A DNA stretch of 61,809 bases, counting the filler, from Vannella sp. (lineage: Eukaryota), in NCBI GenBank assembly GCA_023345925.1. It is 7 parts of 7 records of this genome, joined end to end, with 100 filler letters (N's around TTAATTAATTAA, not from the genome) between each part and the next. Parts side by side here need not be neighbours in the genome. Positions count along the whole stretch, not along the records: positions 12,420 to 27,199 come from JAJQQN010000521.1; 6 more parts are not named here. One strand, written 5' to 3'. This document shows, one piece after another, positions 6,219 to 58,249 of this stretch (position 1 is the first letter of the stretch; every line of letters starts with the position of its first letter). The position numbers and the translations under genes were made by a program. The notes under the pieces are model-generated. The model ran no database searches. It was given only the letters and a program-made list of their open reading frames with translations, and was not told the origin of the DNA.

Positions 6219-8735
6219 ATGCGGCTGGCGTGGCTGCTCCGGGGATTGGTCCTGTTCTCGGCACTTTCGGTGTTTATGCTGATGCTGGAGGAACAGGATA
6301 CAGGGAGAGAGTCTGCAAAGGTGTTCCAGAAGGCCTTTCGAGGGAGGAAGATGAAGCCCATGTTGGTGGAAGTGCGCGGAGTCGAAAAGGAGGACCCGGC
6401 TCCGGACTTGTCCCAGCTCTCTGACGCTAGGAACACTTTGATCCATCAAGGAGACATGATAAGCTCCTTGAACCCGGGAGAAGAGGCCCCGTTTACTGCT
6501 GAGGACGGGAAAGGTGTTCCTTCGTTGACCTTGAGGGAGATAGAGGCGGATTCCTCCCACATGGACTTGAACCAAGGGAGAAACGATGAACTGAGAGGCG
6601 ATTTGACCATCTCCTTCGAGGTAGAGATGCCTGAATTCCTCCAGAAATGCTCCCGGGCTGTTTTTCGGCTTCTTCCTACTCAGACTCGGCTTATCTCACC
6701 CAATGAGCTCAGCCAACATGACCACTACCTCAACGTACAGTGTAAAGGCACAGTGCCTCCTGACGCGGCCACAAGCATGGCCAAAAGCATTCGCTTTACT
6801 CGCCGCATTCCCTTCATCGTCGATCCTGTGGGACTTTGGTACGCTGGACCTTCAAGTGAGATACAGAGAGTTAACAGAAACTCAGCCTGGAAGCTGCCTT
6901 CTTCCCAGATGAGTCTACAGAGCACTGCCAAGTGAATGTGGTTCGAAGTGACCTTTCTGCTGCTCCGTTGGAAGGTGCTGAGGTGGAGTTTAATGTGGAA
7001 GAACTCTCTATTGACCGGGCAGAGAACGAGTGCGGGATACATTGCAAAGGTGGGTCCTCTGGGATTGTCTCTTTCATAATCTCACTTGGAAAGGTTGGCT
7101 TCATCGGGCGCTTCCGACTGCTCAGCAGTTTCTTCTTTATGATAATGACGGATCTCCGCTGTGGAAGAGTAACAGTCCATTGCAGCTGACAAGAGGAAGC
7201 CGGCTGGTAAGAGAGAAGAAGTGAATAAGTGAATTCCGGATCTCATTCCGGACCAGACGCTTTGGATCGTTCCTCACTCCGAGGTTGTGAAGACCTATCC
7301 CAAGGCGGTGTCCAAAGTGGGCTTCAACGCCTTCTTGGATAGCTCAAAGATGAAGCAGGCGGTTTGGGTTTCGCGAAAGTACGAACCCATCTTCAAGGGA
7401 AGCTCTCAACGAGGGTATCGCATCGAGGTGGAAGGCCTTGATGCAGGCCAGTTTGAGCTTGTTGTTGCGCTGTATTGGTTTCATTCATCAAGTGAACCCT
7501 ACGGGAAAGAGGCAGAACCCATTTTAGTGGGCTCCCACTCCTTCCATCAATATTCTCCTTGTGACTTGAAGAGAAGCGAAGTGTGGGATTCCAGAAAGCT
7601 GATTCATGTCCGCATTGAGCCTCTAAAGAAGGGAAAGAGGGAATCAACGCCTCCATTGGACTTGATTGTCCCTTCAAAGCCTCGAAAGTGTACTTCCATC
7701 AACGAGCCTGGCCGTTGGCTCTGGCATGCACTTGATGAAGAATGCCAACCTCCAATCTGTACCGGAGACCTCTTCGAGTCTCGAATCAGCCAGCCCAGCT
7801 GGCAGGGGGCTCGCAGCGAATGGGTTTGGGTGCCTTACAACTGCCACTACCACGCTTATGACCGGGCGGACTTTCTTCGGTGCGCAAGAGAAAAGGACAT
7901 TTCTTGGATACACGTGATGGGGGACTCTTTAGCTCGCGAATACGCGGCGTATCTGATGTCTCTGTTCGGCAACGCAGACACAAACAAATTCGAGACTGCT
8001 GACGTTCAGCTCGAAGATGGGGGCGACTCTGTGCGCCTTAGCTTCCACTTCTGGCCGGACATCATCTTTTCTAATGAGGGAGAAATCTACCGAGACGCTA
8101 ACTTCACTCGAACCATGCTGGACCACTGGAACATTCTGAAGCCTGGAACTTCAAGTCCACTTGAGTTCTATGAGATGCATGTGAGCTTGCCTGGCACAGA
8201 GAAGACTCGGCCAGATGTTTTTATAATGAACCCAGCGACAGCCTACTCTCTTTACATCCAAACAGAACCAGTAAGTTGAAAGCAGAGATGCATCTTGGTT
8301 CTGCTTCTCACTCTTCTGACTTTTCCACTCTTTGGCAGGCATTCCGATCGTATGTCAAGTCATTTGCTGAGATCGTTGGGCGTTCCAACTCTAGGAAGGG
8401 ATCCCCACATATCTTCTGGTACCAAGCGCCCTTCCTCTTCGGAACTGCTCATCCTGGAACGGAGTTTATCACACAAACTCGCAACGAGAGATTCTCTCGC
8501 ATTGCACAGTAAGGAATGAGAAGTTGGGGAGGAGAGGTGTGCTGATGCTTGGCTTAGAGAAGAGCTTCGGGAAAGTCGAGTGAGGTACTTTGATAATATG
8601 GACTTGTCTCAGAGCCGTCCCTCCGAATCCTGGGATGGATTGCACTTCCTCAGAGGGAAAGAAGAGTGGCACGGGCATGTCGCCAACTCCTACGTCCAAA
8701 GATGGCTCAACGAGCTATTTGGTGAATGCAATTGA
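6219..8735 (+). CDS. Type II membrane SGNH/PC-esterase-like putative O-acyltransferase, paralog 2 (tandem duplicate)
   Basis: Same exon structure and motifs as 3692-6159 (VMGDSLARE, WDGLHF); starts only 59 nt after the paralog 1 stop. Confidence 0.7.
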
Positions 8736-12319: not shown

Positions 12320-12419
12320 NNNNNNNNNNNNNNNNNNNNNNNNNNNNNNNNNNNNNNNNNNNNTTAATTAATTAANNNNNNNNNNNNNNNNNNNNNNNNN
12401 NNNNNNNNNNNNNNNNNNN
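12320..12419. other. Assembly spacer (N run with TTAATTAATTAA stop linker)
   Basis: Identical 100-nt pattern occurs six times in the window. Confidence 0.97.
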
Positions 12420-13924: not shown

Positions 13925-16264
13925 TTAGTGCGCCAAGAGAAGCTGGCGAGTAGCATCAAAGCCAATGATGAGCTTGCTGGACTCATCCTTCACAACGCAA
14001 TTGGATTGGAAGACGATTCGCCCTTCTTGCCAGCCGTTGAAGGTTCGCAAGTCGTTGATGACTTGCTGGGAGCCAAAGTAAGGGTGGGATATGACTTGGT
14101 TGTCGTGGAAATCGTGTCCTAAAGTGACGCACTCAAAGCTGTTGATGAGCATGGAGTGCTCTTGGTCCAGAACAAAGCTGAAGACTGCTTGGCACTTTCG
14201 AATGGAAGGCTCAGCAAGGTCTAAGGGGAAGGTCCAGACTCCATTGACACGGATGGGGTGGTAGGGAGTGATTTCAAGCTCTCCCAGTTTCACCAAGTCA
14301 GTCTGGTTGTTCTCGCAAAGGGTCTCGATAACGCATCGCACTGTCGCTTGACGACCAGATCCACTGCGAATGATGTCTCCTTGTTGGATGGCATCGCATC
14401 GCTTCAGGCTGCCATCTGACATGAGGACAAGGGACTGGCCACTGAAGCAAGGATTACTGGAGCAGTGGTATGCATTCATCGAGGAAGGTGCAGAGTAAGA
14501 ACTGGACGAGCCATACGAACTGATGCTGCGTGAAGGCTTTGGTGGTGGCAAGGAAATAAAGATCTCGTCGGTCAAGTCCCGGACCTCATTAAAGAGATGG
14601 CCCCCGTAAAACTGCACGCCAGGGTCCTTGAAGTTATTGCACTGCTGCAAAAGGTGCGCCCTGGCCAGGGAAGGGAGATAATGCCTCCCCCACTTGCTAA
14701 AGTAATCACATTTTGATGTTGCCACTGAAACCTGTCCTTCAGCGTCCTTCAATAACCCCTCTACAAAAGGATCAGAAGCGAATGGACTTGTGCGCGTTGT
14801 TTGAATCCACTTCTTGACAGCCTCATGGATGCTGTCCAGTTCTGACTTGCTGGTAGCAGTGGAGGCGATGCACTCCTGAATCAGATGGACTAAACCCTGA
14901 CGCATAAAGGAGCTTTCTACTGCAAGCGTCCGCTCTTGGATGTCTGCAAGACACAGTTCAGCAGTCAGGCGGTCCGGTTTTTGACCTGGGCTGTATCCAA
15001 GAATAGTGCGATACTCAGCGGTGACGGTGAGCAAAGGTTGCGCTGTGGATTCCTTTCCAGAAGTGGCATTCTTGGGCTTGAGTTCGAAGACAATGTCACG
15101 AGACTGTCCAAAATGGAGAGTCCCAAGAGAGGCAGTCATTCCCCACGACGTAGCAGTCACTGACGGGTGACTTTTGTAACCCACAGCTTCAATTGTGAAG
15201 TCAGATGAAGGCTCAAGAGATAGTGTGACATTCTTGGCCTGGACTGAAAGCAGATTGGAAAGAGCATTCACAAACGCAGTCCCAACAAAGGCGCTGTCGG
15301 GAATGAAGGAATACATTCCGTCACCAACTTGTGCAATCTGCTCCAAAAGCTGGCTTTCCATGTAATAGCCAAAGCCAAACGTGTTGATGGTGCAGCTTAA
15401 TCCGTGCTGATCAAGGTAGCGACGGAGCATGGGAATGTGGCCACGAGGTGGCTCAATGTTAGGCATCCCGTCCGTCAAGATAAAGACCGATTGAAGGCGA
15501 TTGGGCAGCTGGTCTTCTCGAAGAGTGTTCATTCCTTTCTCAAGCCCACCCCAGAGGTTCGTTGAGTCTTCCGTCTGAAGCGCCTTCAGCACCAAGTCAG
15601 CAGCAGCTTTCCCTTCAGGGTTCATGTGAACGAGAGAGAGGACTGTTACAGCCTCAGTACTGTACTTGACAAGAGAGAGTCTGTCGCTTGGCTCTAAAGA
15701 GCTGATGATCGTGGCTACCGCGTGCTTGACCACATCCAAGTACGACAATCCGTGAGATTCGCTCAATCCAGAGGCGTTTTGGAAGGTGGCTTCCGATTCC
15801 ATTGACCCAGAGACGTCAATGACGCAGCAGATGTCAACAGGTGTGCGTTTCCCTTCCATATCAGGCTTCAACGAAGCCAACACGTGAAACCCACCTCCAA
15901 CACTTGGGCTGGAAGACAACTGGAGCTCTATGCCAGAGGGCACGGGCGGGATTAGGATCGGGAGGTTCACGGACGATGCACTGGGTAAGGCTATCGCTTC
16001 AGTAGAGGCTTCAGCGATGATGGCGCCTCCGTTAGGGAGAATCTCTGCGATAAGATCCTTCAGGGCTCGGTTGGGAGCGAGAGAGCTCAAGGACAGGGGA
16101 GTTCTTGTTATGGGGGACGTTGTATTCTTCTTCAACCACGTCTCAATCGCAGATCGCTCGTAAGTGTTCCCTTCCGGATCCACAACAGGGTCTGTCATCA
16201 CCTCGTGGGTCAGCGGGCAGTAGAAGCTTTCAGGGACCGTCTCAGGAGCTGTGTTAGTCACCAT
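13925..16264 (-). CDS. U-box-VWA-Vwaint-Hint (Vint family) protein
   Basis: U-box FYCPLTHEVMTDPV...TYERSAI...SPITR; VWA MIDAS DVSGSM and LTDG; NNFKDPGVQ Vwaint; Hint N-terminus CFSGQSLV, ITPYHP (TxxH), CVTLGH and HPYFGS. Confidence 0.9.
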   Translation of the reverse strand: MVTNTAPETVPESFYCPLTHEVMTDPVVDPEGNTYERSAIETWLKKNTTSPITRTPLSLSSLAPNRALKDLIAEILPNGGAIIAEASTEAIALPSASSVNLPILIPPVPSGIELQLSSSPSVGGGFHVLASLKPDMEGKRTPVDICCVIDVSGSMESEATFQNASGLSESHGLSYLDVVKHAVATIISSLEPSDRLSLVKYSTEAVTVLSLVHMNPEGKAAADLVLKALQTEDSTNLWGGLEKGMNTLREDQLPNRLQSVFILTDGMPNIEPPRGHIPMLRRYLDQHGLSCTINTFGFGYYMESQLLEQIAQVGDGMYSFIPDSAFVGTAFVNALSNLLSVQAKNVTLSLEPSSDFTIEAVGYKSHPSVTATSWGMTASLGTLHFGQSRDIVFELKPKNATSGKESTAQPLLTVTAEYRTILGYSPGQKPDRLTAELCLADIQERTLAVESSFMRQGLVHLIQECIASTATSKSELDSIHEAVKKWIQTTRTSPFASDPFVEGLLKDAEGQVSVATSKCDYFSKWGRHYLPSLARAHLLQQCNNFKDPGVQFYGGHLFNEVRDLTDEIFISLPPPKPSRSISSYGSSSSYSAPSSMNAYHCSSNPCFSGQSLVLMSDGSLKRCDAIQQGDIIRSGSGRQATVRCVIETLCENNQTDLVKLGELEITPYHPIRVNGVWTFPLDLAEPSIRKCQAVFSFVLDQEHSMLINSFECVTLGHDFHDNQVISHPYFGSQQVINDLRTFNGWQEGRIVFQSNCVVKDESSKLIIGFDATRQLLLAH

Positions 16265-16427
16265 AAGAGCTAATTATCGAATGGATTCCCACAGCAAGCA
16301 GACCTCCGCCATTCTCCAAGTCTTCTTAGAGGAAACCTCTCGTTGCTGAAACAGAATAAACCCAGAATGAAAAGTTCCACAAACCTACTTTTCCAGGAAT
16401 TTTTGGAGTAAAGTTTGTTCAGTCGGG

Positions 16428-22269: not shown

Positions 22270-23979
22270 ATGGATGAACAATTGAATTTCGCAGAATTCC
22301 TTGAACACAATTCGGGCCATCGGATTGGACAGAAAGTGTCAATGTCAGTCGCCTCTGGCCTGCCAGTTGCCTTTCGCATGCCAAGACAAGCAGCTCCTCG
22401 CCGAGGATTTCGGAGGGAGTCTGCGTTTCTTCAAAGTGCGCCCTCGCAGAGGTTCTCTCCATACGAGCAATGGGACCCCCTAGCCTTCTCTACCTCGCCT
22501 TCGACGACTTTCAAAAGAGAGCCTGTCATTGACCCTCCTCCTGTAGAGCGGTCGTCATTTCAGCAGGTCTTGCATGTTGTGAGATGTGTCTTTAAACTGC
22601 CCATGTATCTACTGGGGACAATGCAGGAGACTGCGAGCCTCTTGAAGAAGATGAGGGCGAAGCAGCCCGTTCTGGTCTTGCCCTTGCTGTTCATTGATGC
22701 ATCACTACGTGGGGTGGGACAGATCTTCTTCCAGAACAGCCCAATGACTGGTCTGATCATCATCGTGGCCATGTTTGTCGGTGGATGGTGGGAAGGCGTC
22801 TGCTCCCTCTTGGGTCTGGTTTGCTCAACCTTCACCGCAGTCCTCTTTGGCATGAATAGTGCCACGGTAGAGAACGGACTCTACGGCTACAACGGCTTCT
22901 TATGCGGGTCCGCCATGGCTCTTTTTCTTGAAGGACCTTGGGTTGGTTCGACTGTAGTGGCTATCGTATTCTCCTCCATCTTCAGCTCTGTATGTCCTAT
23001 CTCTCACTATCAATGCTCCACTGACACCTGAAAGCTGATTAACTTGGCATTGGGAAATATGCTGATTCCCACTTTCAAACTTCCTCCGTTCACGTTCGCC
23101 TTTAACGTGATTATGTACTTTACTCTGTTTGCAGTATTCAAGTTCGAGTACTTTCACTTTGCCCAGCCCTTCGGTTCTGCTGCTCTGCCAGTGGAAAGTG
23201 AAGCTGACTTTGAGATTTCAGCCTCGATTGTCTTCATTGGCTGGCTTAAAGGAGTGAGCCAGATCTATATCTTAGAGAACTGGATATCGTAAGCATAGTG
23301 AGCTATTTAGGTGTGCAGCAGCTCATCCAAGGGAAGGGGAATTATCATTCTCATAGGTATATCACTTTGTTCTCCCATCAGTGCCTTCTTTACTGGTCTT
23401 GGAAGTGCGGTTGGAATGCTAGTGGCGTTTCTCTTGGGTGCACCGACAAGCGAAATAGCTGCTGGGCTGTACGGCTATGACGCTGCGTTATCTTGCTGTG
23501 CCGTTGGCGGAGTGTTTTTTGTGTTAGTTTAAGGCTCTCCTGCTTCCGTCCCTCTCGTTCTGCTTCATCACTCATACTGTGGTTCTAGGTTGACGCTACG
23601 AGTAGCTTTCCTTTCAGTCTTTGCGGCGGTTCTGACGACGGTAACTCATGGAGCAATGGCAGCGTTCTTTGGAACCTGGGGCTTGCCACCCCTGACTGTG
23701 GCATTCAGTGTAGTGGCATCTCTCTTTGTTCTTCTCCAGGGAAGTGTGGCGGGGGCTACTGCGGTCCAAATCACGCGCATTACCACACCCGAAGCTCACA
23801 TCAGGCGCTATTGGCGGTCTCTCCCTCATGCCAGCAACCGCAAGGGCCCTCGATTCTTCTATTGGATACGAGCATTCGTTATCTCTTCTCATATGAAGAA
23901 AGAGGAGGAGATCCCGCCCGTTCCAGTCCCAGACAAGCATTTGGAGCCGCTCCCTTCGAGTGTGTTTGACCTCCCTTGA
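22270..23979 (+). CDS. Urea transporter (UT/SLC14 family), spliced
   Basis: LRGVGQIFFQNSPMTG, GLYGYNG, LPPFTFAF, KGVSQIY, GLYGYDA, LPPLTVAF repeated halves. Confidence 0.9.
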
Positions 23980-24046
23980 GCTGTCCGTGCCTCTCTGTAA
24001 TAATACGTATCATACTTGTAATAGCGCTTCATTGGGTCTCGCCAGG

Positions 24047-24143
24047 AGGGGAAGAGAAGCTCAAGCCCAGCCCCACTTAAAGTGTTTCGGGCAGACCACT
24101 GCGAGAGTGGCCCTGGATGGGCCTTCATGGGACTTCCACCCCT
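24047..24143 (-). promoter_or_regulatory. SECIS element (type II-like with an extra inserted hairpin) in the GPx 3' UTR
   Basis: Minus strand: AGGGG..GAAG..ATGAA-GGCCCA...GCCC-GAAA-CACT-TTA-AGTG-GGGC-TGGGCT-TGAG-CTTC..CCCCT, giving the AUGAN/NGAN core, AAA bulge and apical mini-helix. Confidence 0.8.
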
Positions 24144-24174
24144 AGAGAGACCTTCAAGTGCGAACGGGAGGTCA

Positions 24175-24818
24175 CTACTCCTTCAGCATGGCTTCGATCT
24201 CGTTGGCAAGACTGAGAGGGGAAGTACTCGCTGCAAAGTGCTTGCATTGTCCCTCTTTGTTGCAGAGATACTGCATGATGGTGAGGAAAGCATTCATCAA
24301 TGAGTCAATCGTACCTTGTTGAAGTTCCAGTTGACTGGCTGCTCATCTGTTGCCTTCTTCAGGAACCGGAAGACAATATGAGCATCAGGACCGTTTACGT
24401 TGACCTTGCTCATGAGTAGGAACTTTGCACCCATCGTAGTACGTGCAAAGGACTCCACTTGGGCGTTAGAACCAGGCTCTTGGTTGAGAAACTGGTTGCA
24501 AGGGAACGCCACAATCGACAAGCCTTTGTCGTTGTACTTCTCGTGCAGCTCATTGAGCTCCACATAGTTCTGTTTGGTTAACCCTCAGTTGGTAGCCACA
24601 TTCACAAACAACGAGACGCGACCGCGGAACTGTTCAAAGTCAACGGAGGTTCCTTGGATGTCGTCCGCCTTCAGCTCAAACAGCGAGTTCACCGGTACTT
24701 GTAAGTTGTCCGCTCCATGAGCAAATCGTGCTCCCAAGCGAGTCAAAAGCGACATGTTCTGGTAGGCCGCAAGGATCGAGAAGAAAGCGACGATCCCAAC
24801 CAGGTGCCCGACCCGCAT
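24175..24818 (-). CDS. GPX: Selenocysteine glutathione peroxidase (GPx4/PHGPx-like); TGA=Sec at 24585-24587; one intron
   Basis: VNVATN-TGA-GLTKQNYVEL in frame at the catalytic position; AFPCNQF..QEPG, KVNVNG, WNFNK motifs; SECIS downstream. Confidence 0.95.
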
Positions 24819-27199: not shown

Positions 27200-27299
27200 N
27201 NNNNNNNNNNNNNNNNNNNNNNNNNNNNNNNNNNNNNNNNNNNTTAATTAATTAANNNNNNNNNNNNNNNNNNNNNNNNNNNNNNNNNNNNNNNNNNNN
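27200..27299. other. Assembly spacer
   Basis: N run with TTAATTAATTAA. Confidence 0.97.
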
Positions 27300-34577: not shown

Positions 34578-34677
34578 NNNNNNNNNNNNNNNNNNNNNNN
34601 NNNNNNNNNNNNNNNNNNNNNTTAATTAATTAANNNNNNNNNNNNNNNNNNNNNNNNNNNNNNNNNNNNNNNNNNNN
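34578..34677. other. Assembly spacer
   Basis: N run with TTAATTAATTAA. Confidence 0.97.
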
Positions 34678-42247: not shown

Positions 42248-42347
42248 NNNNNNNNNNNNNNNNNNNNNNNNNNNNNNNNNNNNNNNNNNNNTTAATTAAT
42301 TAANNNNNNNNNNNNNNNNNNNNNNNNNNNNNNNNNNNNNNNNNNNN
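42248..42347. other. Assembly spacer
   Basis: N run with TTAATTAATTAA. Confidence 0.97.
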
Positions 42348-51702: not shown

Positions 51703-51802
51703 NNNNNNNNNNNNNNNNNNNNNNNNNNNNNNNNNNNNNNNNNNNNTTAATTAATTAANNNNNNNNNNNNNNNNNNNNNNNNNNNNNNNNNNNNNNNNNN
51801 NN
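51703..51802. other. Assembly spacer
   Basis: N run with TTAATTAATTAA. Confidence 0.97.
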
Positions 51803-58149: not shown

Positions 58150-58249
58150 NNNNNNNNNNNNNNNNNNNNNNNNNNNNNNNNNNNNNNNNNNNNTTAATTA
58201 ATTAANNNNNNNNNNNNNNNNNNNNNNNNNNNNNNNNNNNNNNNNNNNN
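58150..58249. other. Assembly spacer
   Basis: N run with TTAATTAATTAA. Confidence 0.97.

Follow-up and report, generated by a model that had tools for sequence, protein, structure and literature searches.

The closest described counterpart of the RNA element reported here is the eukaryotic type II (form 2) SECIS element (RF00031; PMC2647825; PMC3753652 in its available text). Both are positioned in a 3′ UTR, and both have a helix I, an internal loop and an AUGA/GA core followed by a helix II whose first pair is G with a pyrimidine, an unpaired AAA 12 nt from AUGA, and a helix III. By contrast, the element described here, which is encoded on the minus strand downstream of a gene for a glutathione peroxidase (GPx), carries a predicted 25-nt hairpin arm on the 5′ side of helix II and, with it, a three-way junction; moreover, it has UGAG instead of KGAW in the core and a long helix I of 18 bp.

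The core consensus of eukaryotic SECIS elements is RUGAN/KGAW, known SECIS variation has been catalogued without branches, and the published range for helix II including the quartet is 11-16 (PMC2647825). The available text of PMC3753652 and PMC1802603 describes filters that discard candidates if they are Y-shaped or if helix 2 is bent by more than 2 nt, and the minimum distance between UGA and SECIS is quoted as 51-111 nt in that of PMC3753652. In the literature that we searched, with subscription journals mostly outside the search, we found neither a eukaryotic SECIS element with a hairpin in helix II nor a SECIS report naming Vannella.

In the Amoebozoa, the Sec machinery and ordinary SECIS elements have been described in Acanthamoeba (available text of PMC8038987 and PMC3521657). 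The SECIS element of Acanthamoeba castellanii TrxR-L is, like the element described here, an amoebozoan 3′ UTR SECIS that belongs to a UGA-containing redox enzyme; by contrast, it is a typical type 1 element that was found by Seblastian, and a side arm is not reported in the available text (PMC8038987). The lokiarchaeal lokiSECIS also combines an AUGA/GA core with apical adenines; however, it is archaeal and has a 9-bp stem (PMC4989117, available text).

Results

A GPx gene whose catalytic codon is an in-frame TGA

The window, i.e. the whole 61,809-nt stretch of DNA that we analysed, is compact eukaryotic DNA with a GC content of ~50% and contains genes for a tubulin, which we read as gamma-type, an acetyl-CoA carboxylase (ACC), a RasGEF, COG2, a urea transporter and others. 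The closest named relative of the ACC is a Vannella transcript (57%), and in a quick tree of 34 rows the ACC of the window falls into a clade of 10 rows that includes Vannella and Clydonella, with an SH-aLRT of 98 and no bootstrap. Judged from ACC alone, the source organism is probably a vannellid amoeba. The best DNA matches to the window are biofilm metagenomes. A search for tRNA genes in the window detected none. Elsewhere in the window, an open frame of 782 aa with U-box, VWA, Vwaint and Vint (Hint) domains is present at 13925-16273 (minus strand), and six pairs of N runs, each run 44 letters long and the two of a pair separated by 12 bases, are located at 12320-12419, 27200-27299, 34578-34677, 42248-42347, 51703-51802 and 58150-58249, none of them near the SECIS element.

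The GPx gene is on the minus strand. Exon 1 (24315-24818) starts with the ATG at 24818, or alternatively with the ATG at 24755, and the homolog P0002 aligns from this second ATG. A predicted 44-nt GT-AG intron (24271-24314) brings the reading frame back into register with exon 2 (24175-24270), which encodes a GPx-like C-terminus resembling those of P0002 and P0004 and ends with the stop codon TAG (24177-24175), followed by a TGA. The protein scored 133 bits against the Pfam profile PF00255 (GSHPx), for which the cut-off is 27. An in-frame TGA at 24585-24587 encodes residue 78, which coincides with the catalytic Cys when aligned with GPx chains of solved structure and is, therefore, at the Cys/Sec position. 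Q113, W164 and N165 are also present, and together with U78 these are the residues that we take to be the GPx catalytic tetrad. The coding pieces of several sequencing runs differ from the window by 0-1 positions. Within the predicted intron, the same substitution and 1-nt insertion at 24274-24276 were observed in two runs from different studies (X5 and X8), which fits the non-coding status of the predicted intron.

Among 123 aligned GPx sequences, the catalytic column contains C in 91 (the query included, with its U written as C) and W in 30, while two sequences begin after this column. Tryptophan is also what the nearest full-length homologs, P0002 and P0003 (60%), have in this column, whereas P0004 (65%) begins just behind it. 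We infer that the W in the GPx homologs is a TGA that was translated under a code in which TGA is W. The frame of the neighbouring urea-transporter gene terminates in TGA, and there are no in-frame stops in 764 conserved ACC codons; a general reassignment of UGA is, therefore, unlikely.

The urea-transporter gene is convergent to the GPx gene, and its last open frame (23533-23979, plus strand) leaves an intergenic space of 195 nt. The only AT-rich stretch (75%) of this space is 24000-24019, which is a candidate for the 3′-end region of both genes. In the long-range MFE structure of the minus strand, 24165-24173, just past the GPx stop codon, pairs with 23967-23979 at the end of the urea-transporter gene, probably by chance. 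The SECIS element begins ~20-30 nt past the GPx stop codon and, in the predicted spliced mRNA, 412 nt from the GPx UGA, i.e. in the 3′ UTR of a UGA-containing gene and beyond the quoted minimum distance. This element likely lets the cell read the GPx UGA as selenocysteine.

The predicted fold is that of a SECIS element whose helix II carries a side arm

Including an extended helix I, the whole SECIS element spans 24035-24152 (minus strand, as are all positions in this section), and the three-way fold is both the MFE and the centroid structure. In helix I, 24133-24152 pairs with 24035-24054, and the predicted 18 bp consist of GGUCUC/GAGACC, CUAGGGG/CCUCCUGG and GGAAG/CUUCC, the last of which is also used by the Rfam alignment; together they close a 5x5 internal loop. 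An earlier reading of this DNA (the sequence-only reading) had proposed another register for helix I, which was wrong: its AGGGG/CCCCT pairing forms only if the region is cut at 24047. Motif position and the Rfam alignment place the 5′ strand of the core, AUGAA, at 24124-24128 and the 3′ strand, UGAG, at 24060-24063, with the former contributing to a predicted kink-turn G-A tandem.

Helix II is predicted to be interrupted on one strand only. The 5′ strand of helix IIa, GGCCCA (24118-24123), pairs with 24064-24069 (pair probabilities 0.81-1.0), and that of helix IIb, GCCC (24089-24092), pairs with 24070-24073 (0.97). Between them lies the 25-nt side arm (24093-24117), in which a UCCA linker (24117-24114) is followed by an 8-bp hairpin (24113-24093; pair probabilities 0.84-1.0) of the sequence GGGCCACU-CUCGC-AGUGGUCU, with CUCGC as the loop and with G-U pairs at two of the eight positions. 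The 3′ strand of helix II, GGGC/UGGGCU (GGGCUGGGCU, 24064-24073), is unbroken according to the pair probabilities. Above helix IIb, GAAA with the apical adenines (24085-24088) is unpaired in the predicted fold, and helix III, CACU-UUA-AGUG (24074-24084), forms a type II apex of 4 bp (0.70-0.86). At the junction, the four nucleotides UCCA between helix IIa and the arm are unpaired, and there are no unpaired nucleotides between the arm and helix IIb or between helix IIb and helix IIa. The predicted junction persists from 10 to 37 °C, and helix II comprises 10 standard pairs, or 14 with the quartet.

The fold bears out most of the anatomy proposed in the sequence-only reading, i.e. all motifs of the AUGAA/UGAG core and the type II apex are present where it had placed them on the minus strand, the 25-nt insertion splits helix II into 6 + 4 bp in the MFE as well as in the centroid structure, and the arm is an 8-bp hairpin with a CUCGC loop; that two of its pairs are G-U is a correction to this reading. 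The observation of a branched element is confirmed, and its interpretation is partly supported.

Standard search models miss the element

We re-implemented the four SECISearch patterns (strict, default, loose and loose+) from the printed SECISearch3 supplement. None of the four matched the native element at 24128; by contrast, when 24093-24117 was removed in silico, all four matched, including the strict pattern, and the distance from AUGA to AAA was 12 nt. With the arm left out of account, the core-to-AAA spacing is canonical, which supports the sequence-only reading on this point. In a search with 161 nt, Rfam RF00031 (SECIS_1) was the top match with 18.0 bits against a cut-off of 35 (E 0.36), and SECIS_1 was absent from the Rfam results for searches with 5 kb and with the whole window. 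Thus, standard models miss the element, as had been anticipated.

Measured against the features that define a type II SECIS, helix I, the unpaired apical adenines and helix III are each present in the predicted fold. In the core, the invariant UGA and GA of RUGAN/KGAW are present, and the final W position is occupied by G. Continuity of helix II, with 10-13 nt from the core to the apical AA, is lacking, the one-sided insertion being 25 nt where 2 are allowed, and for this reason the element is outside the strict type II definition. As modelled, it matches a type II SECIS at every landmark except for the continuous helix II.

Stability of the predicted fold and partial coverage of the element in a second sample

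The fold of 24035-24155 had a z-score of −3.68 and was reached by 0 of 200 shuffles. For the shorter region of the sequence-only reading, 24047-24143, the z-score was −0.94 (32 of 200 shuffles) and from core to core it was −1.70 (11 of 200). For the side arm alone, the stability was reached by 3 of 200 shuffles and by 27 of the 4884 25-mers of the window. When both strands of the 61.8-kb window were scanned with a pattern describing a SECIS plus arm, two matches resulted, of which only the GPx element has the junction fold. When the arm was shuffled within the element, helices IIa and IIb both remained above 0.9 in 54 of 500 cases (native arm, 0.99 and 0.97). That only ~11% of the shuffled arms keep the flanking helices supports that tolerance requires a self-folding insert; it is not evidence for a function of the arm.

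Among the eight of nine runs that were compared, contigs over the SECIS element were obtained only from X1 and X4. The X1 contig had no differences from the element, and X1 may be the source of the window itself. From X4, another sample from the study that yielded X1, two contigs covered 24004-24109, and the 3′ 17 nt of the arm were unchanged in both. One of them, with a depth of 3, differs at 24034, 24049 and 24079, which are all unpaired or outside the predicted fold; because 53 of the 106 covered positions are paired, three such misses are expected by chance in ~1 of 8 cases and, given also the low depth, this pattern is weak.

Origin of the arm and search for relatives

Aligned in tandem, the arm and the adjacent apex have a CACU...AGUG stem in common and match in 12 of 25 columns. 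This match was equalled by 384 of 20000 plain shuffles and by 909 of 20000 shuffles that preserved the hairpin; moreover, it was found after the fact, and a duplication of the apex is thus at most suggestive. We also considered that the arm might be a repeated mobile element, which was rejected, as its next-best match in the window differs at 7 of 21 positions.

A metagenome scan for close relatives of the GPx detected none; of 200 loci, 80 were kept, and all of these were 34-47% identical. Among those with recognisable active-site motifs, all had Cys except for one (L070), which had TGA. L070 (3-698, 794-924) is an unrelated eukaryote-like GPx with a catalytic TGA and a Cys-rich C-terminal tail; the tail had no Pfam match at 1e-3, and a search for a SECIS in its 3′ region detected none, with a long hairpin located there instead. 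Similarly, close relatives were not detected in two viral scans (five and zero distant loci) or in two prokaryote scans (zero and 13 distant loci). None of these scans yielded the 3′ UTR of a relative.

Viral scans with patterns based on the element returned at least 123 stretches in one case and 58 stretches (43 distinct matches) in the other. By eye, the branched anatomy was absent from the folds inspected, i.e. 12 of 125 and 43 of 43, respectively. In a separate set of viral loci (L280-L522, many of them on GVMAG contigs), we observed a large family of ORFs of 10-45 residues starting with M[RK]GG-UGA-G. Altogether, 243 loci have this motif, and they provide 146 distinct 3′ regions of short ORFs. 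The ORFs are often followed, 20-80 nt downstream, by a short AT-rich AUGA...GA hairpin, frequently without apical AA. Of the 146 distinct 3′ regions, 63 have a core-closed hairpin, none of which is branched.

Discussion

We propose that the element functions as a type II SECIS that would direct Sec into the GPx UGA, and that it tolerates an inserted arm able to fold on itself, a reading that we favour with some confidence. In this model, SBP2 would bind the kink-turn core as usual, and helix IIa would stack flush on helix IIb across the junction to preserve the ruler from the core to the AAA. The side arm would be extruded approximately half a turn above the core, pointing away from it, and would be tolerated rather than needed. 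It would have to fold on itself, since its G/C-rich letters would otherwise invade helix II. More speculatively, the arm may have arisen by tandem duplication of the apex.

The unbroken 3′ strand of helix II would allow helix IIa to stack on helix IIb and in this way rebuild a 10-bp stem. The nearest-neighbour energy is −2.1 kcal/mol for the IIa/IIb stack versus −1.4 kcal/mol for the arm/IIb stack, i.e. a small margin of 0.7 kcal/mol and, because the arm abuts helix IIb without an unpaired base, the two stackings compete. Coaxial stacking of helix IIa on helix IIb is, on this basis, a plausible geometry. Moreover, helix 2 composition alone shifts recoding >300-fold in human elements (PMC2761289, available text), and a junction inside helix II could, therefore, be costly.

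A first alternative gives the arm a role of its own, as a conserved functional third arm, protein-docking or regulatory, of the SECIS elements of this lineage, including those of other selenoprotein genes. The stability of the arm, reached by only three of 200 shuffles, would fit such a role, as would the 3′ strand of helix II, which is left flush; also, both non-Watson-Crick pairs of the arm are G-U on the transcribed strand, while the opposite strand folds less well. However, the arm is documented for one gene of one species, and we recognised no second selenoprotein gene in the window; in addition, the TrxR SECIS of Acanthamoeba is described as typical type 1 in the available text of PMC8038987, and the core-closed hairpins of the giant-virus mini-ORFs were branched in 0 of 63 cases. 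We consider a conserved arm unlikely.

Alternatively, the arm could have been inserted recently and impair or abolish SECIS function, in which case little or no selenoprotein would be made and the gene would perhaps be decaying. This is what one would expect if helix II is the continuous, efficiency-relevant spacer described in PMC2647825 and PMC2761289 (the latter in its available text), and the literature searched contains no branched eukaryotic example. Against it, neither the frame nor the catalytic residues nor any SECIS landmark is damaged, the coding pieces of several runs are nearly identical to the window, and only about a tenth of same-composition shuffled arms would leave the flanking helices intact. 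In our view, a damaging insertion is quite improbable.

The arm could also be spliced out of the mature mRNA, or another SECIS could be used, two outcomes that would undercut the sequence-only reading. For splicing, a single GC-AG pair (24122-24099) can be removed with the core kept; nevertheless, it is 24 nt long, approximately half the size of the 44-45-nt introns of the GPx and ACC genes, has a poor donor (GCCCAT), misses the borders of the arm, and leaves a distorted and weaker fold (−32.0 versus −42.4 kcal/mol), and we rejected it, so that a clean option for removing the insertion is lacking. For a second SECIS, the loose pattern matches at 24032, yet helix II of that candidate has −0.3 to −4.0 kcal/mol versus −21.7 kcal/mol for the branched element, i.e. 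it is not stable, and this candidate was likewise rejected. In the whole window, the canonical pattern has one match, at 8311, which is ~16 kb from the gene. This leaves the branched element as the only credible SECIS downstream of the UGA-containing GPx gene, and both outcomes together have a very small probability in our estimate. Finally, a code in which UGA generally specifies Cys or Trp, with the hairpin being incidental, is scarcely credible: database entries of many homologs show W at the catalytic site, but the TGA at the end of the urea-transporter frame and the 764-codon ACC stretch without an in-frame stop speak against it, and it leaves unexplained why the gene is followed by a full set of SECIS features.

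Returning to the working SECIS with a tolerated arm, we conclude that a branched helix II in a eukaryotic type II SECIS, here predicted in a single instance, is probably a variant beyond the known range. In a bolder version, to which we assign a low probability, vannellids, and perhaps viruses using their machinery, would share a Y-shaped SECIS throughout the lineage, and its third arm would be conserved and dock a lineage-specific factor; if so, selenoproteomes would be hidden, because standard tools filter such elements by design.

Helix II is usually treated as a continuous ruler from the SBP2-binding core to the apical adenines. If an element branched in the middle of this helix works, then the distance matters and the continuity of the strand does not. 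Such an element would also point to a side of the SECIS that the ribosome leaves free, and it would imply that selenoproteins of protists currently go undetected.
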